The notes: generated by a model not told the origin, from the sequence alone. A stretch of 64,000 nt of DNA from Frankiaceae bacterium (GCA_035940575.1 DASZER010000016.1:18258-82257), one strand, 5' to 3'; counted from the stretch's first letter, positions 10,509 to 44,332 are shown. Numbers and translations are program-made.

Positions 10509-10534
10509 CGCCCGTGATCGGCAGGTGAGCGACG

Positions 10535-16886: not shown

Positions 16887-16891
16887 CGAGG

Positions 16892-20844: not shown

Positions 20845-21909
20845 TCAGGGGATGGCAACCCTGCTGTGGTCGCCGAGCATCAGCCGCAACGCCTTCGGGT
20901 GCGCGATCGAGCGCGACAGCTCGACCTCCTTGCCGATGAGCGAGTCCTCGATCCGCTGGATGTCCGCGATGTGCGTCGACTCCAGCACGATCGAGTGCTC
21001 GACCTCGGTGCGCTCCACGAGGCACGAGTGGTAGATCGAGGTGAACGGCCCGACGTACGTGTCGACGATCCGCGTGCCCCTGCCGATGATCGCGGGGCCT
21101 CGCACGGTCGAGCGGACGACCTGCGCGCCCTCCTCGATGACGACGCGGCCGACGAGGCGCGACTCCGTGTCGACCGTTCCGTGGCAGGCCGGCTCGAGCG
21201 ACTCCAGGACCTTGCGGTTGCACTCGAGCATGTCCTCGAGGCGCCCGGTGTCCTTCCAGTAGCCGGTGACGAGGTGCGGCTGCACCTCGCGCCCTGTGTC
21301 GATCAGCCACTGGATCGCGTCGGTGATCTCCAGCTCGCCGCGCGCGCTCGGCTTGATCGCGGCGACCGCCTCGTGGATCGGCGGGCGGAACATGTAGACG
21401 CCGACGAGGGCGAGGTCGCTCTTCGGCTCCCGCGGCTTCTCGACGAGCGTCTGGACCCGCCCGTCCGCGCCGAGCTCCGCGACGCCGAACTGCGACGGGT
21501 TGTCGACCTTGGTCAGGAGGATCTGCGCGTCGGGCTGGTCGCGCTTGAACTCCTCGACCAGCTCGGTGATGCCGCCGACGATGAAGTTGTCGCCGAGGTA
21601 CATCACGAAGTCCTCGTCGCCGAGGAAGTCCCTCGCGATGAGGACGCAGTGCGCGAGGCCGAGGGGGGCCTCCTGCCTGATGTACGTCACCGAGATGCCG
21701 AGCGCCGAGCCGTCGCCGACCGCCGCCATGATCTCCGGCGCGGTGTCGCCGACGATGATGCCGACGTCGGTGACGCCCGCGTCGCGAATGGCCTCGAGGC
21801 CGTAGAACAGCGTCGGCTTGTTCGCGATGGGGACGAGCTGCTTGGCCGACGTGTGCGTGATCGGGCGCAGCCGCGTGCCCGCGCCGCCTGAGAGAACCAG
21901 CGCCTTCAT
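20845..21909 (-). CDS. rmlA: Glucose-1-phosphate thymidylyltransferase (long form)
   Basis: MKALVLSGGAGTRLRPITHTSAKQLVPIANKP. At 354 aa it is the long RmlA type. Confidence 0.9.
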   Translation of the reverse strand: MKALVLSGGAGTRLRPITHTSAKQLVPIANKPTLFYGLEAIRDAGVTDVGIIVGDTAPEIMAAVGDGSALGISVTYIRQEAPLGLAHCVLIARDFLGDEDFVMYLGDNFIVGGITELVEEFKRDQPDAQILLTKVDNPSQFGVAELGADGRVQTLVEKPREPKSDLALVGVYMFRPPIHEAVAAIKPSARGELEITDAIQWLIDTGREVQPHLVTGYWKDTGRLEDMLECNRKVLESLEPACHGTVDTESRLVGRVVIEEGAQVVRSTVRGPAIIGRGTRIVDTYVGPFTSIYHSCLVERTEVEHSIVLESTHIADIQRIEDSLIGKEVELSRSIAHPKALRLMLGDHSRVAIP

Positions 21910-22063: not shown

Positions 22064-23512
22064 GTGACCGACAACCCGCACGGCCTCGTGCTGCCCCCCG
22101 AGCTCGACCCGCGCGGGTACGCGCGGCCGAAGCCTCGCTGGGCGCGCGTGCTGTCGTGGCTCGCGGTGCTGACGTCGTTCTCCGTGCTCGCGGCGAGCGG
22201 CATCGGCTACGCCCTCTACCGCCACTACGACGGCAACATCGACCGCGTCCTGCTCCACGTCGGCGGAAAGCGCCCGCCCAAGGTCGCCGGCAAGGCGCTG
22301 AACTTCCTGCTCGTCGGCTCCGACTCGCGCGCCGACATGAGCAAGGAGGAGCTCAAGAGGGCGGCGACGGAGTTCACGCCGGGGCGGCGTTCGGACACCG
22401 TCATCCTCGTGCACGTCTCCGGCGACAGGAACCACGTCACGCTGGTGTCGTTCCCCCGCGACGCCTACGTCACGATCCCCGCGCACGGCAAGGAGAAGGA
22501 GCACGACGGCAAGCTCAACACCGCGTTCTCCATCGGCGGCCCCGGGCTGACGATCGAGACCGTCGAGCGGCTCACCAACGTCCGCGTAGACCACTACGTC
22601 GAGGTCAACTTCGCCGGCTTCCAGCGCCTCGTCGACGCGGTGGACGGCGTCGAGGTGTGCCTCGCCAAGCCGGCGAAGGAGCCGTTGTCGGGCATCAACC
22701 TCCCCGCGGGCAGGCAGGTCATCAAGGGGCAGCAGGCGCTCGCGTTCGTGCGCCAGCGCCACGGCCTGCCGCGCGGCGACCTCGACAGGATCGAGCGGCA
22801 GCAGCAGTTCCTCGGCGCGCTGCTGCGCCGGGCCACGAGCAAGGGTGTGCTGCTCAACGTCGCCCGCCTCAACCGCTTCCTCGAGACCGCCACCGACTCC
22901 GTGCAGGTCGACCAGGACCTCGGCTTCGAGGAGATGCGCACGCTCGCACTGGCGCTGCGCGACCTCGACCCGGCGCGCGTGGCGTTCGTCACCGCTCCTG
23001 TCGACAAGCTCGCGATGCGCCACGGCCAGTCCGTCGTGCTGCTGGACGACGTCGCCGGTGCCGCGATGTTCCAGTCGATCGCCCGCGACGAGCCGCTCGC
23101 CAAGCCCGCCGCCGCGCTGCCCGCGAAGCTCACCGTCCCGCCGTCCCGGATCCGCGTGACCGTCCTCAACGGCACCGGCGTCCAGGGACAGGCCGCGCAG
23201 GCCGGCAACGACCTGCGGCAGGTCGGCTTCCGCGTCGTCGGCACGGGCAACGCGGAGGGCACGGCGTTCGAGCGCACGGTCGTCCGCTACAACGCCGGCG
23301 ACGAGGCCGCGGCCGCGACGCTCGCCGCGTCGTTGCACGGCGCCAAGACCGAGGTCGTACGCACCGGCGGCACGTCGCTCACGGTGGTCGTCGGGCGCGA
23401 CTACAAGGAGCCGGTCGCCGTGAAGGTCGCGGGCACGCCCGCGCCGCGCCCGTCTCGCTCGGCGACCCAGGCGCCCGTCGCCACCGCCGCCGACAACGTC
23501 TGCGCCAAGTGA
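22064..23512 (+). CDS. LCP (LytR-CpsA-Psr) family cell-wall polymer ligase with a LytR_C domain
   Basis: A TM helix, then the LCP core ([53 protein letters not shown]), then a C-terminal LytR_C domain. It is divergent from rmlA. A GTG at 22064 was chosen so that it does not overlap rmlA; alternative starts lie at 21908-22043. Confidence 0.75.
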   Translation: MTDNPHGLVLPPELDPRGYARPKPRWARVLSWLAVLTSFSVLAASGIGYALYRHYDGNIDRVLLHVGGKRPPKVAGKALNFLLVGSDSRADMSKEELKRAATEFTPGRRSDTVILVHVSGDRNHVTLVSFPRDAYVTIPAHGKEKEHDGKLNTAFSIGGPGLTIETVERLTNVRVDHYVEVNFAGFQRLVDAVDGVEVCLAKPAKEPLSGINLPAGRQVIKGQQALAFVRQRHGLPRGDLDRIERQQQFLGALLRRATSKGVLLNVARLNRFLETATDSVQVDQDLGFEEMRTLALALRDLDPARVAFVTAPVDKLAMRHGQSVVLLDDVAGAAMFQSIARDEPLAKPAAALPAKLTVPPSRIRVTVLNGTGVQGQAAQAGNDLRQVGFRVVGTGNAEGTAFERTVVRYNAGDEAAAATLAASLHGAKTEVVRTGGTSLTVVVGRDYKEPVAVKVAGTPAPRPSRSATQAPVATAADNVCAK

Positions 23513-25314
23513 TGGGCGACGACCGCGAGAGGGACCCCGGCGCGCCCGAGGACCCGCCCGTAGCGCCCGCGGGCGTGCCGATGCCGGACGCCGCCGAGCC
23601 TCCCGCCGGCCCGCCCGCCCCCGCCGGCCCGGCCGACCCGCCGTCCCCCACCGCGGCCGACCCCGCCGCGGCCGGCGACGACGCCGGAGAGCCGGCCGGG
23701 GACGAGCCGGGCGACGAGCCCGGCGACGAGCCCGGCGACGAGCCCGGAGACGAGCCGCGCACCGCCGACGGCACCCCCCTGGGCCCGCGGGCGGCGGCGA
23801 TCATCGCGCAGGCCGACGCGGAGTCCCGCGCGTCGTTCGGTCCGCGGCGGCGCAGCCGCAAGCGCCGCGTCGTCCGCGTCTTGTCGTGGATCGCCGTGAT
23901 CACGTCGCTGTCGGTGCTCGTGGCGAGCGCCATCGGCTTCGGCGCGCTCGCCGTCATCAACAGCCACGTGACCCGCAAGTGCATCTTCTGCGGCGAGTCG
24001 CAGGAGGCGCAGCGCGCGCGGCCGAGCAAGGCCGAAGGCGAGGACGGCAAGGCCCTGAACTTCCTGCTCGTCGGCTCCGACTCCCGCGAGGGCGCGACGC
24101 CCGAGGAGCTCAAGCTCTACGGCACCGAGGCCAACCCCGGCGGCATCCTCACCGACACGATCATCCTGGTGCACCTGTCGCCGAAGAAGGACAAGGCCGT
24201 CCTGGTGTCGTTCCCGCGCGACTCATGGGTCGAGATCCCCGGCCACGGCGAGGCGAAGATCAACACGGCGTACGGCCGCGGCGAGCGCGAGCGCAAGGGC
24301 AGCGGCCCCGCGACGCTGATCCGCACGATCGAGAACCTCACCGGCATCTACGTCGACCACTACCTCGAGGTGAAGTTCGGCGGCTTCATCAAGATGGTCG
24401 ACGCGCTCGACGGCGTCGACGTCTGCCTGCCGCGCGCGGTGAAGGACCCCGACTCCGCGCTCGACCTCCCCGCCGGGCAGAGCCGCGTGAGGGGCACGCA
24501 GGCGCTGGCATTCGTGCGGGCGCGCAAGTTCGACCCGACGGGCGACTTCGGGCGCATCCGCCGCCAGCAGCAGTTCCTCGGCTCGATGCTGCGCCGCGCG
24601 ACGAGCCTCGGCATCCTCGCCAGGCCGGACCGGCTCTACCGCTTCCTCGACACGATCGCGAAGAACCTCACCGTCGACGACAAGCTCGGCCTCGACGACA
24701 TGCGCAACCTCGCGTCGAAGCTGCGCGGGCTGGACCCGGCGCGGATCGTGTTCGTGACCGTGCCGTACCAGCCGAAGGGCGTCTACCACGGCAAGCAGCT
24801 CGCCGTGGAGCTGGACGTGCCCGCGGCGCAGGCGCTGTTCGAGTCGATCCGCGGCGACGACGCGATCAAGGCCAACGCCTCCCCCGCGCCGACGCAGCAG
24901 CCGAGCGACCTGATCGTGGCGCCGTCGCGCATCCGCCTGCGCGTCCTCAACGGCAGCGGCGTGGGCGGCGCGGCGGGCAAGGCCGCCGACGACCTGGCCG
25001 AGCTCGGCTTCCAGATCCGCGCGAAGGGCGACGCCGACGCGTCGACGTACGCGCAGACGATCGTGCGCCACGGCCCGTCCAAGGCCGACAGCGCGCGCAC
25101 CGTCGCCGCCGCCATCCCGGGCAGCGCGATCCAGCTCGACCAGACGCTCGGCACGACGATCGAGGTCGTGATCGGCTCGCAGTACAGCGGCGTCCGCCCC
25201 GTCACCGTCTCGACCCCGACCGCCTCCCCGACGGCCCCGGTCGCGACGCCGACCTCGACGCCGTCGCCGCTCAAGACGACGACCGCCGCCGACGAGCCCG
25301 AGGGGTGCCGCTGA
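23512..25314 (+). CDS. LCP family protein, second paralog, with an acidic Pro-rich N-terminal tail
   Basis: ATG overlaps the previous stop as ATGA. The N-terminal cytoplasmic region contains (GDEP)x5, followed by a TM helix, the LCP core ([29 protein letters not shown]) and a LytR_C domain. Confidence 0.8.
23701..23757. repeat. In-frame 12-nt tandem repeat (gacgagcccggc, about 4.7 copies) encoding (DEPG)n in the second LCP gene
   Basis: Directly visible: gacgagccgggcgacgagcccggcgacgagcccggcgacgagcccggagacgagccg. Confidence 0.6.
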
Positions 25315-25925
25315 TGCTGCACGCGCTCGCGGCCGTCCTCGGGCGGCCGGTGCAGGCGGAGCCGGGGACGCCGTTCCTGACGTTCTACGACGACGCCACC
25401 GGCGAGCGCACGGAGCTGTCGTACGCCACCACCGACAACTGGGTCGCGAAGACCGCCAACCTCCTGCGCGAGGGGCTCGACGCGCAGCCTGGCGACGGCG
25501 TCGCCGTGCTGCTGCCGCCGCACTGGCAGACCGTCGTCGTCACGCTCGCGGTGTGGGCGGCGGGCTGCGTGCTCGCCGACGACGGGGACGTGGCGTTCGT
25601 GAGCGAGGCGGCTTTCGGTCGCGTGCCGCCGCGCCGCGAGACCGTCGCGCTGTCGCTGAAGCCGATGGCCGCGCCGATGGACGAGGTGCCGCCCGGCGTC
25701 CTCGACTACGCCGTCGAGATCCCCGTCTACGGCGACCGCTTCACCCCGTCGGCCCCCGGCACCGCGCCCGCGGCCGAGCCCGCGAGCGGCCGCGTGATGG
25801 TGGTCGACGAGGACCCGGTGCCCGCGGCGCTGGCGGCCCTGCACGGGGGCGGCGGCGTCGTCCTCACGGTCAACGCCGACCCCGCGAGGCTGGCCGCGAG
25901 AGCCGAGAGCGAGCGGGCGCACTAG
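25314..25925 (+). CDS. Conserved actinobacterial hypothetical protein, possibly the TIGR03089-type family that accompanies LCP genes
   Basis: 203 aa. ATG overlaps the LCP stop as ATGA. The family assignment is from memory. Confidence 0.5.
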
Positions 25926-32481: not shown

Positions 32482-33636
32482 CTACTTGAGGAGCTGTCGT
32501 GCCATCACGACGCGCTGGATCTGGTTGGTACCCTCGTAGATCTGCGTGATCTTCGCGTCGCGCATGAAGCGCTCCATCGGGTAGTCGGAGACGTACCCGT
32601 AGCCGCCGAGGAGCTGCACGCCGTCGGTCGTGACCTCCATCGCGACGTCGGAGGCGAAGCACTTCGCGGCCGCGCTGACGAACGTCAGGTCCGGCTCCAT
32701 GCGCTCGGCCTTGCCCGCCGCGACGTAGATGAGCTGGCGCGCGGCCTCGATCTTCATGGCCATGTCGGCGAGCATGAACTGCACGGCCTGGAACGTCGCG
32801 ATCGGCTTGCCGAACTGCGAGCGCTCCTTGACGTAGCCGAGCGCGTAGTCGAGCGACCCCTGCGCGATGCCGAGGGCCTGCGCGCCGATCGTCAGGCGCG
32901 TGTGGTCGAGCGTGCGCAGCGCGGTCTTGAAGCCGGTCCCCTCCTCGCCGATGATCCGGTCGGCCGGGATGCGGCAGTTGTCGAAGTACAGCTCGCCGGT
33001 GGGGCTGCCCTTGATGCCCATCTTCTTCTCGAGCTTGCCGACGCTGAAGCCGGGGTCGTCCTTCTCCACGACGAACGCGCTGATGCCGTTCGCGCCCTTC
33101 TCGGGGTCCGTGACCGCCATGACCGTGTAGTACGACGACACGCTCGCGTTGGTGATCCAGCGCTTGGAGCCGTTGAGGACGTACGAGTCGCCGTCGCGCA
33201 CCGCGCGCGTCTTCATCGACGCGGCGTCGGAGCCCGCCTCGGGCTCCGAGAGGGCGTAGCTGATCATGCCCTCGCCGCTCGCGACCTTGGGCAGGTAGCG
33301 GTGCTTGATGTCCTCGCCGCCCGACAGCAGCATGCCCTGGGTCCCGAGCTTGTTGACGGCCGGGATCAGCGACGACGCGGCGCAGACCCGCGCGACCTCC
33401 TCGATGAGGATCGCGCTGGAGATCGCGTCGGCGCCGGGGCCGCCGTACGCCTCGGGGACGTGGATCGCGAGCAGGTCGTTGCGCTTGAGCTCCTCGAACA
33501 CGTCCCACGGGAACTCGCCCGTCTCGTCGATCTGCGCGGCGCGCGGGCCGATCTTCGCCTCGGCCATGGCGCGGACGGACTTGCGGAGGAGGTCGTGCTC
33601 CTCGGCGAGGCGGTACGTGTCGAAGTCAGGGTTCAC
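32482..33636 (-). CDS. Acyl-CoA dehydrogenase
   Basis: 384-aa full-length ACAD with GGYGYVSDYPMERFMRDAKITQIYEGTNQIQR at the C-terminus. Confidence 0.9.
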   Translation of the reverse strand: MNPDFDTYRLAEEHDLLRKSVRAMAEAKIGPRAAQIDETGEFPWDVFEELKRNDLLAIHVPEAYGGPGADAISSAILIEEVARVCAASSLIPAVNKLGTQGMLLSGGEDIKHRYLPKVASGEGMISYALSEPEAGSDAASMKTRAVRDGDSYVLNGSKRWITNASVSSYYTVMAVTDPEKGANGISAFVVEKDDPGFSVGKLEKKMGIKGSPTGELYFDNCRIPADRIIGEEGTGFKTALRTLDHTRLTIGAQALGIAQGSLDYALGYVKERSQFGKPIATFQAVQFMLADMAMKIEAARQLIYVAAGKAERMEPDLTFVSAAAKCFASDVAMEVTTDGVQLLGGYGYVSDYPMERFMRDAKITQIYEGTNQIQRVVMARQLLK

Positions 33637-33747
33637 ACGGCCAATCGTAATGGCGCGCCGGTATGGCCCGGATTGGGCCGAACGCCCCCTTCAGTACGGC
33701 ACACGCGGACTATTCAGCCCCGGCGGGGACCCGACGATGACCACTCC

Positions 33748-36078
33748 GTGACCATCGAGGACTACGTCCCCCGGCACGCCGACGCGGCGCCGCCGCGGCG
33801 CCGGCGCCTGGGCGAGGTCCTGGTCGCCTCGGGCGTCATCACCGAGGCCGAGCTGAACGGCCTCCTCGCCGAGCAGGCGTCGCAGCCGCGCGAGCTCCGC
33901 AAGCGCCTCGGCGCGATGGTCGTCGAGAAAGGCATGGCCGCCGAGCGCGACATCGCGACGGCGCTGGCCGCCGTCATGGGCCTGGAGATGGTCGACGTCG
34001 CGCGCCTCGGCGTCGCGCCCGCGGCCGCCAGGCTGATCCCGCGCGCGGTCGCCGAGCGCTACGCCGTCCTCGGCGTCGCGTACGCCGAGGGCCGCCTCAC
34101 GCTCGCGATGGCCGACCCGACCGACGTCGTCGCGCTGGACGACGTACGCCTCTACACCAAGGCCCGCACGATCGTCACGGTCGTCGCGACCGAGGGCGCT
34201 ATCCGCGAGCACCTCGCCCGCGCGTGGAGCCTCGAGGAGGACGCGTCCGACGTCGCCGGCATGTTCGAGGCGCTGGAGGAGCAGGCGCCCGAGGAGGACG
34301 ACGACAACGACGCCGAGTCGACCCCCACGGTCAAGCTCGTCAACGTCATCCTCTCCGACGCCGTCCACGCCCGCGCCTCGGACATCCACCTGCAGCCCGA
34401 GCTCGACGGCCTGCGCGTCCGCTACCGCGTGGACGGCCTGCTGCGCGACGTCATGACGGTGCCGCGCAGCGCGGTCGCCTCCGTCACGAGCCGCGTCAAG
34501 ATCATGTCGGGCCTCGACATCGCCGAGCGCCGCCGCCCGCAGGACGGCCGTACGCGGCTGTCGGTCGACGGCGACCAGATCGACGCGCGCATCTCGACGC
34601 TGCCCTCGATGCACGGCGAGAAGGTCGTCATCCGCCTGCTCGCCCGCGGCGAGGGCGTGCTGCCGCTGTCGCGCGTCGGGTTCAGCGAGCGGCAGATGGA
34701 CGCGATCCTCGACGCGCTCGTCGCGCCGCAGGGCCTCGTCCTCATCACCGGCCCGACCGGCTCGGGCAAGACGTCGACGCTGTACTCCGCGATGACGCAG
34801 ATGCGTACGCCCGACCGCAACATCGTCACGCTCGAGGACCCCGTCGAGGTCCAGCTCCGCGGCATCACGCAGGTCCAGACGAACGAGCGCGCGGGCCTGA
34901 CGTTCGCGGCCGGCCTGCGGTCCGTGCTGCGCCAGGACCCCGACGTCATCCTCGTCGGCGAGATCCGCGACAGCGAGACCGCCGAGCTGGCGCTGCGCGC
35001 GTCGCTGACCGGCCACGTCGTCTTCTCGACCCTGCACACGAACGACGCCTCCGCGGCCGTCACCCGCCTGGTCGACATGGGCATCGAGCCGTTCCTCATC
35101 GCGTCGTCGCTGACGCTCGTCGTCGCGCAGCGGCTCGTCCGCGTGCCGTGCTCGCACTGCGCCTCGCCGTACACGCCGAGCCCGCGCACGCTCCAGCTCC
35201 TCGGCCTCACCGAGTCCGACCTCGCCGGCGCCACCGTCGTGCGCGGCCGCGGCTGCGAGCAGTGCGGCCAGACCGGCTACCTCGGCCGCACCGCGATCTT
35301 CGAGGTGCTGCCCGTCGACCAGTCGCTGCGCGCGGTGCTGACGTCGCGACCCACCGAGAACGCGATCCGCGAGGCCGCGCGCGCGGCCGGCGTGGCGTCG
35401 TTGCGCGGCGACGGCGTCGCCCGCGCGCTGCGCGGCGAGACGACGCTCGAGGAGGTGCTGCGCGTCACGCAGGTCGACCACTCCGCGACCGGCAACCACT
35501 GCCCCACGTGCGACCGCTCGCTCGAGGAGGACATGGCGTTCTGCCCGTGGTGCGCGGCCTCCGTCGGGCGCCATGCGTGCGCCGGCTGCTCGCGCAGGCT
35601 CGACGCCGAGTGGCGCGTCTGCCCGTGGTGCCGTACCGCCGCCGGCGGCACGGTCGCGGCCGCCCCTGCCGAGGAGCCCGAACGCGCCCGTCCCCGCATC
35701 CTCGTGGTGGACGACGACGAGCACGTGCTCGACTTCGTGGAGGCGGCGCTCGTCGACATCTGCGACGTCGTCCGCGCGCGCAGCGCGGAGGAGGCGCTGC
35801 GCGCCGCCGCCACCGAGGACGTCGCGGCGATGGTGCTCGACCTCGTGCTGCCCGACCTGTCGGGCGTCGAGGTCACGAGGCTGCTGCGCGCCGACGCGCG
35901 GACCGCGCTGATCCCGTTGCTGCTGCTGACCGGCACGGACGACCCGCTGATGCGCACCGAGGCGTCGACGGCCGGCGCGGACCTGTACCTGTCGAAGCCG
36001 ATCGAGCCCGCCGCCCTCGAGGCCGCGGTCTGCCTGCTGCTGGAGCGCGCCGCCCTCGCCCCCGAGACCGCCCCCTAG
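33748..36078 (+). CDS. GspE/PilB-family secretion ATPase with an MshEN-type N-terminal domain, two extra zinc ribbons and a C-terminal response-regulator receiver (REC) domain
   Basis: GTG start at 33748. The N-terminus (RLGEVLVASGVITEAELNGLLAEQ) matches the MshEN c-di-GMP-binding motif. The GspE core has Walker A GPTGSGKTSTLY, TLEDPVE, and RQDPDVILVGEIRD..TA..A..A..TGHVVFSTLHTN, plus the canonical tetracysteine CSHC...CEQC. Beyond that there are two further CxxC...CPWC ribbons, then a REC domain with all key residues (VVDDDE, LDLVLPD, LLLTG, LSKP). Confidence 0.8.
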   Translation: MTIEDYVPRHADAAPPRRRRLGEVLVASGVITEAELNGLLAEQASQPRELRKRLGAMVVEKGMAAERDIATALAAVMGLEMVDVARLGVAPAAARLIPRAVAERYAVLGVAYAEGRLTLAMADPTDVVALDDVRLYTKARTIVTVVATEGAIREHLARAWSLEEDASDVAGMFEALEEQAPEEDDDNDAESTPTVKLVNVILSDAVHARASDIHLQPELDGLRVRYRVDGLLRDVMTVPRSAVASVTSRVKIMSGLDIAERRRPQDGRTRLSVDGDQIDARISTLPSMHGEKVVIRLLARGEGVLPLSRVGFSERQMDAILDALVAPQGLVLITGPTGSGKTSTLYSAMTQMRTPDRNIVTLEDPVEVQLRGITQVQTNERAGLTFAAGLRSVLRQDPDVILVGEIRDSETAELALRASLTGHVVFSTLHTNDASAAVTRLVDMGIEPFLIASSLTLVVAQRLVRVPCSHCASPYTPSPRTLQLLGLTESDLAGATVVRGRGCEQCGQTGYLGRTAIFEVLPVDQSLRAVLTSRPTENAIREAARAAGVASLRGDGVARALRGETTLEEVLRVTQVDHSATGNHCPTCDRSLEEDMAFCPWCAASVGRHACAGCSRRLDAEWRVCPWCRTAAGGTVAAAPAEEPERARPRILVVDDDEHVLDFVEAALVDICDVVRARSAEEALRAAATEDVAAMVLDLVLPDLSGVEVTRLLRADARTALIPLLLLTGTDDPLMRTEASTAGADLYLSKPIEPAALEAAVCLLLERAALAPETAP

Positions 36079-36187
36079 GAGGGTTCTGCGAAACCCGGCC
36101 CTGCTGCGCCGAGTCCGCGCGACGCAGGGCGGCTGCGGGCTGGGTCATGCCCCGCAGGCGACCGAGAACGCAGCCGGTCGTACCCTC

Positions 36188-36664
36188 CTAGTCGCAGGCG
36201 GGGCCGCTGCCGGGCAGCGGCCCGACGATCCTCCCGAACGCCGCCGCGATCGTCGCGAGCTCCTCCTGCGTGAGAAGGTCCACGACGTGCTCGCGCACGC
36301 CGCGCAGGTGCACGGGCGCCGCGGCCTTGAGCCGCGCGAGGCCCTCGTCCGTCAGCACGGCGTTGGTGCCGCGCAGGTCGCTCGGGCACGACTCGCGGCG
36401 GATGAGCCCCTCGCGCTCCAGCCGGTCGACCAGGCGCGTCAGGCCGCTGCGGGACAGCAGCACGCGGTCCGCGAGGTCGGTCATCCGCAGGCGGCGGCCG
36501 GGGGCGTCGTTGAGGTGCAGCAGCACCTCGTACGAGCCGAGCGGCAGGTCGCACTCGGCCGTCAGCTCCGCGTCGAGCAGGCGCGTCACCTTGGCGTGCG
36601 CGCGGAGGAACGACCGCCACGCGTCGAGCTCGACGTGTGAGAGCGAGGAGACCCGGGTACCCAT
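36188..36664 (-). CDS. MarR family transcriptional regulator
   Basis: 158-aa winged-helix protein (LTRLVDRLEREGLIRRE). It is divergent from yceI. Confidence 0.85.
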   Translation of the reverse strand: MGTRVSSLSHVELDAWRSFLRAHAKVTRLLDAELTAECDLPLGSYEVLLHLNDAPGRRLRMTDLADRVLLSRSGLTRLVDRLEREGLIRRESCPSDLRGTNAVLTDEGLARLKAAAPVHLRGVREHVVDLLTQEELATIAAAFGRIVGPLPGSGPACD

Positions 36665-36757: not shown

Positions 36758-37327
36758 ATGTCCGTCCAGACCACGACCTCGGTCGAGCAGCTCACCGGCA
36801 CCTACGACATCGACCCCAGCCACTCGAGCCTCGAGTTCGCCGCCAAGCACGCGATGGTGACGACCGTGAAGGGCCGCTTCAGCGACTTCAGCGGCGTGCT
36901 CTACCTCGACGCCGCCGACCCCTCGAAGTCCACCGCCGAGGTCACCATCAACGTCGACAGCCTCGACACGCGCAGCGAGCAGCGCGACGAGCACCTGCGC
37001 GGCGACGACTTCTTCGACGTCGCCAACAACCCGACGATCACGTTCAAGAGCACCCGCGCGGCGGCCGGCAAGGACGAGGACGAGTACCGCATGTGGGGCG
37101 ACCTGACGATCCGCGGCGTGTCCCGCGAGGTCGAGCTCGAGCTCACGTTCACCGGAAGCGCGCAGGACCCGTGGGGCAAGCAGCGCGCCGGCTTCGAGGG
37201 CCGCACGGTCGTCAACCGCAAGGACTGGGGCCTGACGTGGAACGTCGCCCTGGAGGCCGGCGGCATCCTCGTCAGCGACAAGGTGAAGCTCAACCTCGAC
37301 ATCGCCGCGGTGAAGCGCGACGCGTAG
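36758..37327 (+). CDS. YceI family protein
   Basis: 189 aa. DIDPSHSSLEFAAKHAMVTTVKGRF and WGDLTIRGVSREVELELTF fit the YceI family. A GGAGC ribosome-binding site lies upstream. Confidence 0.85.
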   Translation: MSVQTTTSVEQLTGTYDIDPSHSSLEFAAKHAMVTTVKGRFSDFSGVLYLDAADPSKSTAEVTINVDSLDTRSEQRDEHLRGDDFFDVANNPTITFKSTRAAAGKDEDEYRMWGDLTIRGVSREVELELTFTGSAQDPWGKQRAGFEGRTVVNRKDWGLTWNVALEAGGILVSDKVKLNLDIAAVKRDA

Positions 37328-38177: not shown

Positions 38178-39302
38178 ATGCCGACTGTCGAGCAGGTCAA
38201 CGCCGCGCTGGCGACCGTGCAGGACCCGGAGATCCACAAGCCGATCACCGAGCTGAACATGGTCGAGTCGGTGGACGTCGGCGCCGACGGCGTCGTCTCC
38301 GTACGCGTGCTGCTGACGGTCGCCGGCTGCCCGTTGAAGGACAAGATCACCCGCGACGTCACCGAGGCCGTCTCCGCGCTGCCCGGCGTCACCGGCGTCC
38401 GCGTCGACCTCGGCGTGATGGACGACGAGCAGCGCGCGGCGCTCCAGACGCAGCTCCGCGGCGGGCAGGCCACGCGCGAGATCCCGTTCGCGCAGCCGGG
38501 CTCGCTGACCCGCGTCTACGCCGTCGCGTCCGGCAAGGGCGGCGTCGGCAAGTCGTCGGTCACCGCCAACCTCGCGGCCGCGATGGCGGCCAACGGCCTG
38601 AAGGTCGGCGTCGTCGACGCGGACATCTACGGCTTCTCGATCCCGCGCATGCTCGGCGTCGAGGGCCGCCCGACGCAGGTCGAGTCGATGATCATGCCGC
38701 CGACCTCGCACGGCGTGAAGGTCATCTCGATCGGCATGTTCGTGCAGGGCAACCAGCCGGTCGTGTGGCGCGGCCCGATGCTGCACAGGGCGTTGCAGCA
38801 GTTCCTCTCCGACGTGTTCTGGGGCGACCTCGACGTCCTGCTCTGCGACCTCCCGCCGGGCACCGGCGACATCGCCATCTCGATCGCGCAGCTCATCCCG
38901 AGCGCGGAGATCCTCGTCGTCACGACGCCGCAGCTCGCCGCGCGCGAGGTGGCCGAGCGCGCCGGCTCGATCGCGGTGCAGACGCGCCAGCGGCTCGCCG
39001 GCGTCGTCGAGAACATGGCCGGGCTCGCGTGCCCGCACTGCGGCGACCACGTGGACGTGTTCGGCTCGGGCGGCGGCCAGGCGGTCGCCGAGGCGCTGAC
39101 GCGGACCATCGGCGCGCCGGTGCCGTTGCTCGGCCAGGTGCCGATCGACGTGCGCCTGCGCGAGGGCGGTGACAACGGCACGCCGCTCGTGCTCAGCGAC
39201 CCCGACTCCGCCGCCGCGAAGGAGCTGCGCCGCATCGCCGACCAGCTCGGCACGCGTTCGCGCGGCCTCGCCGGTCGCTCCCTCGGCCTCTCCCCCGCGT
39301 AG
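38178..39302 (+). CDS. mrp: Mrp/ApbC family Fe-S cluster carrier ATPase
   Basis: N-terminal DUF59-like domain, deviant Walker A GKGGVGKSS, and the CPHCG motif. Confidence 0.9.
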   Translation: MPTVEQVNAALATVQDPEIHKPITELNMVESVDVGADGVVSVRVLLTVAGCPLKDKITRDVTEAVSALPGVTGVRVDLGVMDDEQRAALQTQLRGGQATREIPFAQPGSLTRVYAVASGKGGVGKSSVTANLAAAMAANGLKVGVVDADIYGFSIPRMLGVEGRPTQVESMIMPPTSHGVKVISIGMFVQGNQPVVWRGPMLHRALQQFLSDVFWGDLDVLLCDLPPGTGDIAISIAQLIPSAEILVVTTPQLAAREVAERAGSIAVQTRQRLAGVVENMAGLACPHCGDHVDVFGSGGGQAVAEALTRTIGAPVPLLGQVPIDVRLREGGDNGTPLVLSDPDSAAAKELRRIADQLGTRSRGLAGRSLGLSPA

Positions 39303-39356
39303 CGCACGCGAAAGGGCCGCGACCGAGGTCGCGGCCCTTCGTCGTGCGCGTGCCCG

Positions 39357-40046
39357 CTACGCGAGCGTGAACGAGTCGCCGTCCTTCGCCGAGTTGTCGA
39401 CGACGCCGTTGGCGGCGCCGCAGGTGCGGCCGAGCTCGGGCGTGTCGTCCGGCGTGCAGGTGTTGTAGTCCTGCAGCTCGCGGACCTCGAACCACAGGTC
39501 CGTGATCTTCGTGCCGGCCTTCACGCCGGAGTCCGCCGGGATCGCGGACATCGGGACGGTCCAGGTGATCGTGTTGTCCTTGATGACCGGCGCGGGGATC
39601 GCGGTGAGGCGGATCGTCTCGTCGATGCAGTCGTCGCGCAGCGCGGACTGCGGGATCTGGTCGTCGCTGCCGGGGTTGGTGTAGTAGACGACGCCGAAGA
39701 TGCCGCACTTCGGCGTCGTGCCGAGCATGCGGTAGACGAGCGCGGTCGGGTCGGGCGGCGTCGGCGGGCCCGACAGCGTCGTCGTGACCGTGAAGCCGGT
39801 GACCGTCGTGACGGTCTTGCCCTTGACCTTCTTCGTCGTCTTCGTCGTCTGCCACAGCACCGACGTGACGTCGGCGTACGCCTGGGTGAGCGGCACCGTG
39901 GTGTTGTCGCGGGTGGCCTCGTGGTTGACGTTGGCCGTGAAGTTCGCGTCACCGGAGGGGTCGGTGACCTGGGGTGCCGGCGCGGCACCGGCGTGCGGGG
40001 CGAGCAGCGCCAGCGCGAGCGCGGGCGCGAGAACGAGACGGCGCAT
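39357..40046 (-). CDS. Secreted protein, divergent member (G) of the repeated ~200-aa family
   Basis: ATG at 40046 is preceded by a strong AGGAGGGGG ribosome-binding site. Signal peptide MRRLVLAPALALALLAPHAGA. PQVTDPSGDANF and NTITWTVPMSAIP are family motifs. Confidence 0.6.
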   Translation of the reverse strand: MRRLVLAPALALALLAPHAGAAPAPQVTDPSGDANFTANVNHEATRDNTTVPLTQAYADVTSVLWQTTKTTKKVKGKTVTTVTGFTVTTTLSGPPTPPDPTALVYRMLGTTPKCGIFGVVYYTNPGSDDQIPQSALRDDCIDETIRLTAIPAPVIKDNTITWTVPMSAIPADSGVKAGTKITDLWFEVRELQDYNTCTPDDTPELGRTCGAANGVVDNSAKDGDSFTLA

Positions 40047-40196
40047 GGGTACGCGTCCCCCTCCTGGTCTGGGTGATGTGAACGCGGCGGAGTTCGCCAC
40101 TGCGAGCGACTCTCCTGTGAGAGCCGCACTGGACGCGTCCGGTTCGCCCCGTTACGTTCGCCGCCGTCCGATCCGTCCGTCCCAGCCGGAGGAACG

Positions 40197-40538
40197 TTGA
40201 ACCGCGCCCTGCTCCCCAGCCTCGCCGCCGTCGCCCTCGCGGGCGCGATCGGCGCGGGCTTCCACACCGTCGCCGGTGCCGAGGACTGCTACGGCCTCGA
40301 CGCCGCACGCGTCTGCGCCACCCCGGACAACACGCCCCGCGTCGAGCCGACCGGCGGGTCGGTCGGCGAGTGCGTCCACGTCGGCTCGTCCTGCACGCCC
40401 GTGTCCGCGCCGGCTCCGGTGGTCTCGCGGGACCCGAAGGGCGGGCCGCTCGTGGACACCGGGTGCTACGTCGGCACCCAGACGTGCGAGGACTGGGCCG
40501 AGGAGCGCCTGCCGCAGACGGCGGCCGCGAGGCCGTGA
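40197..40538 (+). CDS. Small secreted cysteine-rich protein (113 aa, 8 Cys)
   Basis: A TTG start follows a GGAGGAAC ribosome-binding site. Signal peptide MNRALLPSLAAVALAGAIGAGFHTVAGA. The mature part carries 8 Cys. Confidence 0.45.
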   Translation: MNRALLPSLAAVALAGAIGAGFHTVAGAEDCYGLDAARVCATPDNTPRVEPTGGSVGECVHVGSSCTPVSAPAPVVSRDPKGGPLVDTGCYVGTQTCEDWAEERLPQTAAARP

Positions 40539-40542
40539 CCTA

Positions 40543-40842
40543 CTAGGTCGCGTCCGGGTCGTAGGGCGGCCGCTCTCCCGCGGGGAGGGCGGCCGTCGCC
40601 GCCTTCGGCACGTCCGGCTCGTCGTCGTCGAAGAACCGCCGCGGGTCGAGCCTGCGGATCTCGTCCACGTCCACGCCGAACTCGTCGCGCAGGTCCTTCG
40701 AGACGCCGGTCGCCATGCGGCGCAGCTCGCGGACGAGCCTGCCCGCGTCGGCGGCGACCTTGGGCAGGCGCTCGGGGCCGAAGATCAGCATGCCGAGGAC
40801 GAACAGCACCGCGAGCTCGGCCCACCCGAGGTTGTTGAACAA
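40543..40842 (-). CDS. tatB: Twin-arginine translocase component TatA/TatB family (position and size suggest tatB)
   Basis: MFNNLGWAELAVLFVLGMLIFGPERLPKVA is the Tat N-terminal TM plus amphipathic helix. It lies downstream of htrA, as in the mycobacterial sigE-rseA-htrA-tatB cluster. Confidence 0.75.
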   Translation of the reverse strand: MFNNLGWAELAVLFVLGMLIFGPERLPKVAADAGRLVRELRRMATGVSKDLRDEFGVDVDEIRRLDPRRFFDDDEPDVPKAATAALPAGERPPYDPDAT

Positions 40843-40854
40843 CGCGGCTCCCGC

Positions 40855-42042
40855 CTAGTCCGGCTTCTGCCCCAGCGTGACGCGGACGGTGCTCTCGCGG
40901 CCGTCCCTGACGTACGCCACCTCGACAGTCTCCCCCACGCGGTGCGCGCGGATGGCCGCAATCAGGTCTCCCATGCTCGCGACCTTGTGCGAGCCGAGCC
41001 GGACGACGACGTCGCGCGCCTTCAGCCCGGCGACGTACGCGGGCCCGCCCTCGACGACCTCCATCACGAGCGCGCCCTGCTGGACGCCGATGCCGAAGCG
41101 CTTGGCGGTCTGCGGCGTGAGGTCGTTGCCACTGACGCCGAGGTACGGGTGCGTCGCGCGCCCGGTACGGATGATCTGCTCGGCGACGGCGCGCGCCTCG
41201 TCCACCGGGATCGCGAAGCCGATGCTGATCGACCCGCCGCCGCCGCCGAGCACGTTGCCGAGCGAGGCGATCGCCGAGCTGATGCCGATGACCCGGCCGG
41301 CGCGGTCCACGAGCGCGCCGCCGGAGTTGCCGGGGTTGATCGCGGCGTCGGTCTGGATCGCGTCGACGAGCAGCGTCGAGCCGTCCTCGTTCGGGATGTC
41401 GAGCGAACGGTGCAGCGCGCTGATGATCCCGGCCGTCACGCTGCCGGCGAGGCCGAGCGGCGAGCCGATGACGACGACGGGGTCGCCGACCTGGAGGTCG
41501 TTCGAACGCCCGAGGCGAGCGACGGGGAGGTTCGTCACCTTGATCTTCACGACCGCGAGGTCGGTGTCGTCGTCGGAGCCGACGAGCGTCGCCTCGGCCG
41601 TGGTGCCGTCGGCGAGCGTGACGTCGATCTCGTCGGCGTCGGCGACGACGTGGTGGTTGGTGACGATGTAGCCGTCGCGGCCGATGATCACGCCGGAGCC
41701 CGCGCCGTTCGCGACGCGGATGCTGACGACGGCGGGAACGACGTCGCGCGCGATCGCGGCGACGGTACCGGGCGTCGTGTCGCGCGGCGTCGTGACGCCG
41801 GTGGCGACGGTGTAGGAGGGGTCGCGGCCCGAACGCTCCTCGCTGCGCATGACCAGCGCCGCGCCACCCGCGCCGCCGAGGCCGCCGACGAGCAGCGCGC
41901 CGAGCGCCACCGCGACGACGGTGCCGAGCCTGCCGAGGCCGCGTCGCGGCGTTCCGGAGTACGGCGACCAGAGCTGCTCCGTCGAGCGCCACGCGCCGTC
42001 CTCGACCGGCGGCGGCTGCAGCCACGGGTCCTGCTCGGTCAT
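40855..42042 (-). CDS. htrA: HtrA/DegP-family serine protease (S1C) with a PDZ domain
   Basis: 395 aa from the internal ATG. TM anchor, TNHHVV (His), DLAVVKI (Asp), GNSGGAL (Ser), then a PDZ domain. Confidence 0.85.
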   Translation of the reverse strand: MTEQDPWLQPPPVEDGAWRSTEQLWSPYSGTPRRGLGRLGTVVAVALGALLVGGLGGAGGAALVMRSEERSGRDPSYTVATGVTTPRDTTPGTVAAIARDVVPAVVSIRVANGAGSGVIIGRDGYIVTNHHVVADADEIDVTLADGTTAEATLVGSDDDTDLAVVKIKVTNLPVARLGRSNDLQVGDPVVVIGSPLGLAGSVTAGIISALHRSLDIPNEDGSTLLVDAIQTDAAINPGNSGGALVDRAGRVIGISSAIASLGNVLGGGGGSISIGFAIPVDEARAVAEQIIRTGRATHPYLGVSGNDLTPQTAKRFGIGVQQGALVMEVVEGGPAYVAGLKARDVVVRLGSHKVASMGDLIAAIRAHRVGETVEVAYVRDGRESTVRVTLGQKPD

Positions 42043-42050
42043 CGGTCTCC

Positions 42051-43112
42051 CTACGCGAACGGGTTGAACCACGACCCGACGCGGGCGATGCCGTTGCCGA
42101 GCCGCGAGCCGATGCCCGGCCCGGGGTTGCCGTGCGGCAGCGCCCCGACGAGGTCGGCGAGCGTCTGCGCGGGACACTCCGCGACGACCGTGAAGACGTA
42201 CCCGTCCCCGGCCCACACCACCCGTTGCGGGAACGCGCCCTGGACGTGCACGTCCGCGCCCGCCACCTGCTCCTCGCGCCAGCCGTCGACGCTGCCGTCC
42301 GCGAGCCGGCCGCGCTGCTGGAACACGCTGACCGACGAGACGCCGTCGGAGTACGTGAGCTGGAGCACCTGGGCGTCGCCGTCGCCGGTCATCCGCGCGT
42401 CGAACAGCTCGAGCCCGGACGCGAGCCCCTCCGGCACGTGCCAGCCGTCCGAGCGCATCAGCGCGACGTCGGGGAACGCCAGCGGCTGGCCGTCGGCGAC
42501 GGGCATCGCCCGCACGCCGTCCATGCTCGACTCGCGCGGCGACGACGCCGTGCCGACGACGAGGTCGAGGAACGCGCTCTCCCGCACCGTCCGCCCCTCG
42601 CCGTCGAGCACCTCGCGGCGCAGCGGCAGCGACGTCTCCCTGTCGATCCAGTAGCGGGCCGTGGGCGACGTCGAGGGGCGGCGTACCGCGACGACCGTCG
42701 CAAGGCGGCCCGCGACCTCGCCGCTGCCCTCGACCGCGATCTCGTAGTGCTTCGACAGCAGGGTCAACGTGCCGTTGGCGAAGCCGACGACGTCGGGCAG
42801 GCCGCCGGACTCGTCGTCGTAGACGGCGCCGCCCGGGCTCTGCGGCGTGGGCCGCACGCGGACGAGCAGGCCCTGGCCCGCGACGTGCGAGACGTCGACG
42901 ACGGCGCTGGTGGAGCCGTTCGGCGACCAGTACGACACCATCTGCGTGCCGCGGTAGGTGAGGTCCTGCGCGGCGCGGCCCGCGCGTTCGAGCAGGGCGA
43001 GCGCGTCGTCGGCCGCGCTCCACGCGAGCGGCTCGGCGGGCACGGCGTACACGGGCGCGGCGAGCGCCACCAGGCACCCGCCGGTCGCGGCGAGGAGCAG
43101 CCCCCGCCTCAT
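42051..43112 (-). CDS. Periplasmic RseB/MucB-like or LolA-fold regulator of the sigma-E system (hypothetical)
   Basis: 353 aa from an ATG that overlaps the rseA stop as ATGA. Signal peptide [23 protein letters not shown]. It sits between rseA and htrA. Confidence 0.5.
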   Translation of the reverse strand: MRRGLLLAATGGCLVALAAPVYAVPAEPLAWSAADDALALLERAGRAAQDLTYRGTQMVSYWSPNGSTSAVVDVSHVAGQGLLVRVRPTPQSPGGAVYDDESGGLPDVVGFANGTLTLLSKHYEIAVEGSGEVAGRLATVVAVRRPSTSPTARYWIDRETSLPLRREVLDGEGRTVRESAFLDLVVGTASSPRESSMDGVRAMPVADGQPLAFPDVALMRSDGWHVPEGLASGLELFDARMTGDGDAQVLQLTYSDGVSSVSVFQQRGRLADGSVDGWREEQVAGADVHVQGAFPQRVVWAGDGYVFTVVAECPAQTLADLVGALPHGNPGPGIGSRLGNGIARVGSWFNPFA

Positions 43113-43621
43113 CGCCCGAACGACGACAGGATGACGCTGCCGGCCGGGTCGTTGAGCGGGCCGAGGCGCCCGGTGGTGGCGGCGTGGTCCTCGACGAACG
43201 ACTCGACCGGGGGACGTACGGGATGTCCGCCCTTCTCGCCGCCGACGGCGGCGACACCCGCGACGAGCGCGACGCCGAGCGCGGAGTACGACACCGCGCG
43301 GCTGCGCAGCGAGGCGCGCTCGGCGGGGCGGCGCGCGACGCGGCGGCGCGGCGGGCCGGGGCGGGTCGACGCGCCGCGGACGACGTCGCCGTCGTTGCTC
43401 GGCGCCGCGGCGGTGCGGGCGATGTCGAGCAGGCGGGCGTTGAGGCCGCTGGGGACCTCGGGGTCGGACTGGTTGGCGAGCAGCGCCTTGAGGCGGCGCT
43501 GCGCGTCCACCTCGGCGCGGCACCCGTCGCAGCGGGTGATGTGCGCGAGCGCCCGGTCGCGGGCGTCGTGGGAGAGCTCGTTGTCCACGAGCGCGGCGGC
43601 GAGGTCGTCGAGGTGGCTCAT
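43109..43621 (-). CDS. rseA: Anti-sigma-E factor RseA (zf-HC2 type)
   Basis: 170 aa. [12 protein letters not shown] is the zf-HC2 motif, followed by a TM helix. The ATG overlaps the sigE stop as ATGA. Confidence 0.7.
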
Positions 43622-44190
43622 CGGGTGGTCTCCAGGGCCGCGCGGATCTGGGCACGGCCGCGGTGGATGCGACTGCGTACGGTGCCGAGCTTGACGCCGA
43701 GGGTCGCCGAGATCTCCTCGTACGACAGCCCCTCGATGTCGCAGAGGACGACCGCCGCCCGGAACTCCGGCGACAGCGAGTCGAGCGCCTTCTGCACGTC
43801 GTAGTCGAAGAGCCTGTCGTCGACCTCGGTGGCCGGGCTCGGCGCGGTGCCGGCGACGCGCTCGGCGTCGTCGGGCAGCGGGTCGAAGCGCACGCGGTTC
43901 TTGCGGCGCACGCCGTCGAGGAACAGGTTCGTCGTGATCCGGTGCAGCCAGCCCTCGAACGTGCCCGGGGTGTAGTCGGCGAGGGAGCGGAAGACGCGGA
44001 CGAACACGTCCTGCGTCAGGTCCTCGGCGTCGTGCTTGTTGCCGGTGAGGCGGTACGCCAGGCGGAACACCCGCGCGGAGTGCGTGCGGACGACCTCGTC
44101 CCACGTCGGCGGCACCCAGGGGGCGTCCGCGGCGACGGCGGGCACGTCCTCCACGACACCTCCCCGGTCCAGCACGGCGCTTTCCATCAT
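43618..44190 (-). CDS. sigE: ECF RNA polymerase sigma factor SigE
   Basis: Region 2 ([16 protein letters not shown]) and region 4 ([34 protein letters not shown]). The start was chosen at the MMESAV ATG pair. Confidence 0.85.
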
Positions 44191-44332
44191 CTGCTCCAAC
44201 GGACGTTCGCGACAGCGGGGTGCTCCGGACGGCGGACGGCGCCGCCGGGATCGGGTCGGGTTCGGTCCCGGCGGCGTCCGCCATCCTCTGCAACGGCCCG
44301 GGCGCCCGCCGCGTTCCCGTAGGGTTGGCCGC

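Follow-up and report, generated by a model that had tools for sequence, protein, structure and literature searches.

The stretch of DNA considered here, a 64-kb window from a Frankiaceae bacterium (DASZER010000016.1:18258-82257), harbors a gene for a PilB-like motor ATPase to which a double zinc ribbon and a phospho-receiver domain are joined at the C-terminal end. The open reading frame (ORF) starts with a GTG codon, at a position common to the homologues, and encodes a product of 776 amino acids (aa) that is 100% identical to an NCBI protein of the same length (P0001), named 'MAG TPA: ATPase, T2SS/T4P/T4SS family [Frankiaceae bacterium]'. In a window with a G+C content of about 73%, a model based on GC by codon position gives this gene the top coding score, and the codon-position GC is even along the whole ORF. 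An original prediction, made from the sequence alone, had claimed a complete secretion ATPase core that continues into an extension of about 200 aa, in which two further zinc ribbons precede an intact receiver (REC) domain. This is confirmed in every detail, the extension beyond the ATPase core measuring 201 aa (residues 576-776) and the whole architecture being MshEN-T2SSE-DZR-REC. A putative motif for binding of cyclic di-guanosine monophosphate (c-di-GMP) at residues 20-76 was absent from that prediction. The domains of the protein, and the neighboring genes discussed further on, are listed in the table.

The ATPase core matches the Pfam T2SSE model (profile positions 3-370 of 370) with 434 bits against a cut-off of 24.9, and all the signatures claimed for it were read in the sequence: the Walker A motif G335-PTGSGKT342 (nucleotides (nt) 34750-34773), the Asp box (E363, D364), the Walker B motif (D397...E405), the His box (H423, H430) and the tetracysteine zinc site C468-x2-C471...C503-x2-C506 (nt 35149-35265). 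Among solved structures the best relatives are PilF (6f8l, 495 bits) and PilB (5tsg and 6olj, about 470 bits), followed by GspE (380-406 bits) and PilT (about 110 bits), and the PilB equivalog model TIGR02538 aligns residues 21-575 to positions 2-563 of its 564, with 573.0 bits. Compared in this way, the core is PilB-like rather than GspE-like and below the threshold for an orthodox PilB: the best structures are PilF and PilB and the PilB model runs end to end, yet the scores lie under the curated cut-offs. The earlier label 'GspE/PilB-type' is thus sharpened toward PilB; the alignment to the GspE model does not begin before residue 96.

Upstream of the core, residues 17-161 align to the MshEN N-domains of the Geobacter and M. 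xanthus PilB, Thermus PilF and Vibrio MshE proteins, and residues 17-131 to V. cholerae MshE (PDB 5HTL, E value 1.7e-11). The c-di-GMP motif of MshE consists of two tandem copies of RLGxx(L/V/I)(L/V/I)xxG(L/V/I)(L/V/I)xxxxLxxxLxxQ placed about five residues apart (Wang et al. 2016, PMC5013675). In the Frankiaceae protein the first motif, R20-LGEVLVASGVITEAELNGLLAE-Q43, is an exact fit to the strict 24-residue pattern, and the second, R53-LGAMVVEKGMAAERDIATALAA-V76, retains Arg, the two Gly and the hydrophobic residues, with Val in place of the final Gln; the spacer between the two has nine residues here (9-10 in the family) versus five in the MshE motif. Among the best 120 database matches, which make up branch 1 of the family (56-100% identity; at least 120 sequence clusters), 116/120 have R20 and 120/120 have Q43, and the second motif ends in Ala in 100/120. 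Binding of c-di-GMP by the MshEN N-domain is predicted and would likely constitute a second regulatory input, although it is not assured, because the second half-site and the spacer deviate.

At the other end of the protein, both CxxC...CPWC ribbons were found as claimed (C585-x2-C588...C599-PW-C602 and C611-x2-C614...C625-PW-C628), and over residues 581-628 the Pfam models DZR (PF12773; 30.8 bits, cut-off 27.3) and DUF7575 (31.4 bits) both score above their cut-offs. Seven of the eight ribbon cysteines of the Frankiaceae protein are invariant in 120/120 family sequences; position 602 (nt 35551-35553), the fourth ligand of ribbon 1, is Cys in 54/120 and Asp in 66/120, which may point either to a Cys3Asp site or to a ribbon that is losing its metal in part of the family. 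The C-terminal region scores as a receiver (Response_reg, 68 bits, cut-off 30.2), and its alignment with E. coli CheY pairs the acidic residues D655/D656 with D12/D13, the phospho-acceptor D698 (nt 35839-35841) with D57, T728 with T87 and K750, which is followed by P751, with K109. D698 and K750 are conserved in 120/120 sequences, T728 in 119/120 and D656 in 119-120/120, and position 655 is Asp in 105 and Glu in 15. In an AlphaFold2 model of the whole protein, built on a 19-sequence alignment, the domains are individually well modelled (mean predicted local distance difference test (pLDDT) 75.8, predicted template modelling score (pTM) 0.41), the receiver showing the (beta-alpha)5 pattern at a pLDDT of about 90, the zinc ribbons being of low confidence (pLDDT about 55-60) and the linkers 576-582 and 633-645 being predicted as disordered. 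With this pTM and these linkers, the model provides no reliable docking of the receiver on the ATPase; as modelled, the receiver looks flexibly tethered to the ATPase through the double zinc ribbon that sits between the two linkers.

The same architecture is widespread. The branch 1 proteins have a uniform length and domain order and come from uncultured Frankiales, Mycobacteriales or Actinomycetota metagenome-assembled genomes, or from metagenomes; conserved in 120/120 are Lys and Thr of Walker A, Glu and Asp of the Asp box, Glu of Walker B, the two His of the His box and 11 of the 12 cysteines (four of the core and seven of the ribbons). As far as the sequences tell, the ATPase core is under strong purifying selection. 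A second branch, 39-45% identical to the Frankiaceae protein, keeps the T2SSE-DZR-REC order (L088, L089, L090, L118); these four loci, together with L093 and L096, were obtained from a search of metagenome contigs with the C-terminal module, and L001-L003 from a search of genome contigs with the full-length alignment. When L090 was used as the query, at least 119 further clusters were recovered for branch 2, of which few members are named, these being Candidatus Acidiferrales and Candidatus Xenobia, which we take to belong to the Acidobacteriota and the Eremiobacterota, respectively. A double-ribbon pattern is found in 119/119 branch 1 sequences and, in the form CP[WY]C, in 116/119 branch 2 sequences, and the c-di-GMP motif in 0/119 branch 2 sequences by the strict pattern and in 1/119 by a relaxed one. 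Altogether the family counts at least 240 clusters at 90% identity, in at least three phyla and in soil and other metagenomes, and its members carry automatic database labels only ('type IV pilus assembly protein PilB'). Among the named matches there is no cultured host.

The ribbon-receiver module appears to be confined to these proteins: when the C-terminal 203 aa were compared with 1.84 billion cluster representatives, the full module was found, among the best 150 matches, in family-type proteins (774 and 783 aa) or in shorter proteins that are probably fragments, and in none of these 150 in any other architecture. C-terminal receiver fusions without a ribbon also occur, as MshEN-T2SSE-REC proteins in a Deltaproteobacteria metagenome-assembled genome (L004), an Omnitrophota one (L014) and a diderm contig (L148); they share with the family the C-terminal receiver on a PilB-like ATPase and the absence of PilC or PilT nearby, and differ from it in lacking the double zinc ribbon. 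In a neighbor-joining tree of the ATPase core the actinobacterial syntenic group has a support of 100/100, and the deeper nodes vary with the distance measure; L004 and L014 group with the DZR-REC family under one measure, and the bootstrap falls to 7-8/100 under another.

Table. Coordinates of the ATPase gene, its domains and the genes discussed in the text (positions in the 64-kb window, except where a locus is named)
Feature	Coordinates	Strand	Evidence
Whole coding sequence: MshEN, T2SSE ATPase, double zinc ribbon, REC	33748..36078	+	Pfam, codon-position GC, P0001 identity
MshEN_N part with two 24-residue c-di-GMP-type motifs, residues 20-76	33805..33975	+	Wang et al. 2016 motif, alignment to 5HTL
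MshEN C-terminal half (N1 domain of PilB-type ATPases), residues 78-159	33979..34224	+	Pfam MshEN PF05157, E 3.4e-15
T2SSE ATPase core (N2 and C-terminal domains), residues 189-572	34312..35463	+	Pfam PF00437, E 4e-130
Double zinc ribbon, residues 585-628	35500..35631	+	Pfam DZR, DUF7575
Receiver (REC) domain, residues 651-761	35698..36030	+	Pfam PF00072, E 1e-18
Acyl-CoA dehydrogenase	32482-33636	-	Pfam
MarR regulator	36188-36664	-	Pfam
YceI-like protein	36758-37327	+	Pfam
MgtE_N-CBS protein	1789-3042	+	Pfam, tblastn synteny
DUF1003 membrane protein	3029-3586	+	Pfam, tblastn synteny
Mrp/ApbC	38178-39302	+	Pfam
TatA/B	40543-40842	-	Pfam
HtrA	40855-42042	-	Pfam
RseB-like (MucB/RseB-like)	42051-43112	-	Pfam
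zf-HC2 anti-sigma	43109-43621	-	Pfam
Extracytoplasmic function (ECF) sigma	43618-44199	-	Pfam
J-domain/PAS kinase module	L089 3224-5363; L090 7974-9853; L167 12318-14255; L168 12394-14273		

The surroundings of the gene contain nothing of a pilus or secretion machine. All called genes of the window were annotated with Pfam, and none of them encodes T2SSF/PilC, PilT, PilM/N/O, a prepilin peptidase, a secretin or a histidine kinase; tblastn of the window with PilC and PilT queries matched the ATPase itself and nothing else, and neither a prepilin signal, searched with a regular expression, nor gsp genes of a type II secretion operon were found in it. The earlier claim that no platform, pilin, prepilin peptidase or secretin gene lies within 15 kb of the ATPase thus extends to the full 64 kb. 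The linkage was counted over loci of at least 12 kb, namely the window and 12 further family loci, with 58 non-fused PilB loci from the same search for comparison; PilC or a full-length PilT lies near the family ATPase in 0/13 of them (within 10 kb in the 12 relatives and within 64 kb in the window). The ATPase had been called an orphan, and this holds at the level of the locus only. Genes related to c-di-GMP, such as those for GGDEF, EAL or PilZ proteins, are likewise not found in the window.

Other genes accompany the ATPase in branch 2. In four loci from different organisms (L089, L090, L167, L168), a gene for a J-domain protein of 262-279 aa starts a few bases from the stop codon of the ATPase gene or overlaps it, and is followed by a convergent gene for a soluble PAS-HisKA-HATPase_c kinase of 355-361 aa. 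The J-domain of this protein is N-terminal and its C-terminal half is uncharacterised; it would be an unexpected partner for a PilB-type ATPase. A PAS-PAS-histidine kinase is also encoded directly downstream of the ribbonless fusion of the Omnitrophota L014. A J-domain or kinase partner was considered for the window too and rejected, as tblastn found no homologue there or in the actinobacterial loci. As a separate observation, genes with a link to c-di-GMP are found no more than 10 kb from the ATPase in three loci, encoding a PAS-GGDEF-EAL protein in L085 (897-3491), PilZ in L167 (15546-17376) and GGDEF and REC proteins in L168 (5046-6482); the surroundings of L168 also include a hybrid kinase.

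In the Actinomycetota the gene occupies a recognizable place. The neighbors named in the original prediction, an acyl-CoA dehydrogenase and a MarR/YceI pair, are indeed those of the window, and the ATPase gene appears monocistronic here, because it is divergent from the former and convergent with marR. The block that follows downstream (38178..44199), from Mrp to the ECF sigma factor, continues with an O-methyltransferase and PepA, and its Mrp-Tat-HtrA-sigma order is presumably the arrangement known around sigE-mrp in mycobacteria. The context of the relatives was read from gene tables or by tblastn synteny in eleven actinobacterial loci (L001-L003, L081-L086, L093, L096), and in 11/11 the ATPase gene lies upstream of mrp-tatB-htrA in the same block, as far as the contigs reach; the sigE-htrA-tatB-mrp block, whose gene order recurs in L001, L002, L081-L086, L093 and L096, marks a fixed chromosomal position of the actinobacterial ATPase gene. 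In seven loci (L001-L003, L082, L083, L085, L086) the genes for an MgtE_N-CBS protein and a DUF1003 protein (a small membrane protein) are followed directly by that for the ATPase on the same strand, the gap between the last two ranging from a 1-nt overlap to about 60 nt where genes were called (L082, L083, L085, L086), and in L001, L002 and L086 the ATPase gene stands exactly between those of DUF1003 and Mrp. In L081 two small genes separate the upstream MgtE_N-CBS/DUF1003 pair from the ATPase gene; in the Frankiaceae window about 30 kb do so, and the DUF1003 linkage is also broken in L084, L093 and L096. The acyl-CoA dehydrogenase neighbor is common only to the closest relative examined (L084, 85% identity). 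The MarR/YceI pair follows the ATPase gene also in L081, L083 and L084 and is probably not functionally linked to it, because L001, L002, L085 and L086 lack the pair.

The DNA that separates the DUF1003 gene from the ATPase gene in the window (3587-33747) carries genes for an ABC-2 exporter (6114-8176), GT2 and GT4 glycosyltransferases (8173-12079), a 935-aa amidase-domain protein (13127-15934), RmlD/RmlB/RmlA-type enzymes (16014-17863, 20845-21909) and two LCP (LytR_cpsA_psr) proteins (22064-25314), followed by those for two CoA transferase proteins, an ECF sigma factor and a thioesterase and, last, that for the acyl-CoA dehydrogenase. The conserved block seems to have been rearranged here or to have received a cell-wall glycopolymer cluster by insertion, and L084 shares only the acyl-CoA dehydrogenase side of the stretch. 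Within it, a 206-aa ORF (25305-25925, plus strand) matches the first 70 or so of the 384 positions of an AMP-binding enzyme model and is probably a truncated remnant. In the block downstream, the RseB-like gene between those of the zf-HC2 anti-sigma factor and HtrA is kept in L082-L085, the relatives that reach that far; no RseB homologue is known from the sigE-rseA-htrA region of mycobacteria, so that the SigE stress module may have gained this gene in a particular lineage. Elsewhere in the window, an uncharacterised 978-aa protein (52578-55514, plus strand) is next to the ATPase in coding score and has a weak FlgD_ig-like match (E value 3e-5, below the cut-off), and two tandem genes of the LOG/SLOG family ('Lysine_decarbox'; 59917-61286, minus strand) lie beside DapE-like (M20 peptidase) and DapD-like (tetrahydrodipicolinate succinyltransferase) genes. 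A scan of 33400-36400 for promoters and terminators found none, by a method ill-suited to high-GC actinobacteria.

The reading that we favor, with a confidence that goes only halfway, is that of a hexamer-forming PilB-type motor that would be gated in cis by phosphorylation of its own receiver, and probably by c-di-GMP as well, and would act in a type IV filament machine. The protein would form the usual PilB-type hexamer, and a histidine kinase encoded elsewhere would phosphorylate D698; the phosphorylated receiver would then alter the assembly of the hexamer, its ATPase cycle or the docking of a partner, possibly by dimerising with the receiver of a neighboring subunit or, alternatively, by releasing an inhibitory contact of the receiver with the ATPase ring. 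Binding of c-di-GMP to the N-domain would provide the second signal, probably an activating one. That phosphorylation gates the ATPase, as the original prediction had supposed, is a natural inference, and it is supported by the PAS histidine kinases adjacent in relatives from other phyla: the receiver is taken as a real phospho-receiver because such a kinase adjoins the gene in L089, L090, L167, L168 and L014. The motor would work on a PilC-type platform encoded elsewhere in the genome, the protein thus being a signal-controlled PilB paralogue; this is the most uncertain step, with odds that are about even. Type IV pilus genes can be dispersed, the Thermus pilF gene lying apart from the other pil genes.

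Several observations weigh against this proposal. PilC or PilT is encoded beside an ordinary PilB in 50/58 of the comparison loci, among them the actinobacterial L030 (Cellulomonas), L047 and L048, and the difference from the family loci is significant (Fisher's exact test, p = 3.5e-9); neither a pilin nor a PilM-type gene was found nearby in the window or in the 12 further loci, and a pilus motor would not ordinarily be so uniformly unlinked in three or more phyla. No histidine kinase is encoded in the window or in the actinobacterial loci. The protein reaches neither curated threshold, its 573.0 bits lying under the cut-off of 675.65 for PilB and its 561.8 bits, over an alignment from residue 96 onward only, under that of 630.25 for GspE (TIGR02533). 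The second c-di-GMP half-site is deviant, with Ala or Val for Gln and a spacer of 9-10 residues. Finally, no published description of the ribbon-receiver PilB architecture, or of any family member, was found in the literature searched.

The most resilient alternative, unlikely as it still appears, is that the protein is a motor independent of pili, in which ATP-driven ring movements gated by phosphorylation would be exerted on a lineage-specific target that is not a filament. Candidates in the Actinomycetota would be the MgtE_N-CBS and DUF1003 products or the envelope-stress block (Mrp, TatB, HtrA, SigE), and, for the branch of the Acidobacteriota/Eremiobacterota, the J-domain protein encoded with the ATPase and, via it, Hsp70. 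The contrast in linkage between the 13 family loci and the ordinary PilB loci is what would be expected of such a motor, and the scores below both equivalog cut-offs point the same way, as do the position of the ATPase gene directly after that of DUF1003 in seven loci, with three of them placing it between DUF1003 and mrp, and the J-domain gene that abuts or overlaps the ATPase stop codon in four others. However, the conserved neighbors differ between the branches, so that no single partner emerges, and the DUF1003 linkage is broken in the window and in three further loci. The MgtE_N-CBS/DUF1003/mrp adjacency may moreover be an inherited position rather than a functional one, because the arrangement exists in actinobacteria without this ATPase, presumably in M. 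tuberculosis as Rv1232c-Rv1229c. We also know of no PilB-family ATPase that works without a PilC/GspF-type platform. Put in general terms, and as a doubtful proposition, the MshEN-T2SSE-DZR-REC proteins would be widespread hexameric motors under two-component control that no longer serve type IV filaments and that couple phosphorylation, and in the Actinomycetota c-di-GMP too, to ATP-driven work on another target; if true, this would be the first PilB-family ATPase to function independently of a PilC/GspF platform.

It is rather improbable that the protein is a signalling scaffold, that is, an unusual response regulator in which nucleotide-dependent oligomerisation would be a mere switch and which might, like regulatory ATPase paralogues, act by sequestering pilus components or others or by competing for them. 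Pure scaffolds usually lose their catalytic residues, and here those of the Walker A and B motifs and of the Asp and His boxes are all retained in 120/120 sequences. For this view speak the sensing modules at both ends of the protein, the signalling genes around L167 (PilZ proteins) and L168 (GGDEF, REC and hybrid kinase), and the fact that in many bacteria several MshEN proteins are encoded that have a regulatory role (Wang et al. 2016, PMC5013675). A GspE of a cryptic type II secretion system is very improbable, even if the GspE model nearly equals the PilB model (562 versus 573 bits) and GspE structures are strong matches. This identity was rejected on account of the PilB-type N-domain, an MshEN_N bundle typical of PilB and MshE that precedes the start of the GspE model, and of the host, an actinobacterium (P0001 is named Frankiaceae, and the sigE-htrA-tatB-mrp synteny agrees); the window, besides, has no secretin or GspC-M genes. 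Such a host is taken to lack an outer membrane and hence type II secretion. That the gene is an artefact of assembly or annotation, either a chimera of a pilB and a response-regulator gene or a pseudogene, has for it nothing but the origin of the sequence in a metagenome-assembled genome, and is practically negligible and was rejected. The codon-position GC is uniform along the ORF, the motif residues are invariant or almost invariant in the 120 homologues, and the same uninterrupted architecture recurs in 120 or more independent clusters (NCBI, ENA, JGI and Logan assemblies) and in at least 119 more of branch 2.

Type IV pili, type II secretion and DNA uptake are all driven by PilB-type ATPases. 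The routes by which signals arrive at these motors are under active study, and those known pass through separate CheY-like regulators, through PilZ/FimX or through c-di-GMP. In the family described here a phospho-receiver is hard-wired into the motor, and the actinobacterial branch apparently carries a c-di-GMP site too; the family would thus offer a compact system for studying the control of a PilB hexamer through phosphorylation of a receiver. As it lacks linkage to pilus genes and lies beside other conserved genes in each branch, it may also represent the recruitment of a PilB-type motor to a task other than piliation, and whether the outcome is a pilus or a non-pilus function, it would correct the automatic PilB label.

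Compared with known systems, the closest are the extension ATPases of the PilB/PilF/MshE group (Geobacter PilB 5tsg/6olj, T. thermophilus PilF 6f8l, M. xanthus PilB 3jc8 and, for the N-domain, V. cholerae MshE 5htl), with which the Frankiaceae protein shares an end-to-end alignment of residues 17-577 that comprises the MshEN domain with its RLGxxLV...Q motif, the N2 and C-terminal ATPase domains, the Walker A and B motifs, the Asp and His boxes and the tetracysteine. Unlike them, it carries the 201 additional C-terminal residues with the double zinc ribbon and the receiver, remains under the PilB equivalog cut-off and has a non-canonical second c-di-GMP half-site and spacer; members of the family, too, are never adjacent to pilC, pilT or pilM-type genes in the loci examined. 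The control of a PilB motor by a phosphorylated receiver is a logic shared with free CheY-like regulators, such as PixG, which binds Synechocystis PilB1 only when phosphorylated (PMC11181946), the tandem-receiver regulator DrdR, which reportedly controls PilB/PilT in Xanthomonas campestris (PMC13507683), and PilG/PilH of the Pil-Chp system. Those regulators, however, are proteins of their own and act in chemosensory pathways for which the pili are known, whereas here the receiver is covalently fused to the motor. For the fusion itself the ring ATPases NtrC1 and DctD provide a model, as they also join a receiver to an oligomeric P-loop ATPase whose assembly or activity is controlled by phosphorylation. 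This receiver control is established; NtrC1 and DctD are nevertheless AAA+ activators of sigma-54, unrelated in ATPase fold and family, with an N-terminal receiver and a transcriptional output, in contrast to the PilB/GspE type of additional-strand-catalytic-E ATPase. Closer in kind are the MshEN-T2SSE proteins fused to an N-terminal REC (Gmet_3473), to GAF or to cNMPbind domains (Wang et al. 2016, PMC5013675, Supplementary Table 4), which share the idea of a secretion or pilus ATPase combined with a signalling input domain, including a two-component receiver, and which are likewise uncharacterised. In two other loci (L100, 6132-9026; L107, 10001-12898) a receiver match lies just upstream of a PilB-like match and may represent this N-terminal REC type, to judge by hit positions only. 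The REC fusions of Wang et al. 2016 have the receiver at the N-terminus, come from beta-, gamma- and deltaproteobacteria and carry no zinc ribbon, whereas in the Frankiaceae-type family the receiver is C-terminal, follows a double zinc ribbon and occurs in Actinomycetota and in Acidobacteriota/Eremiobacterota-like lineages, an order that is not in Supplementary Table 4 of that study. Taken together, PilB-like ATPases fused to sensor domains were already known, though uncharacterised, and what appears to be new is the C-terminal arrangement of a double ribbon and a receiver.

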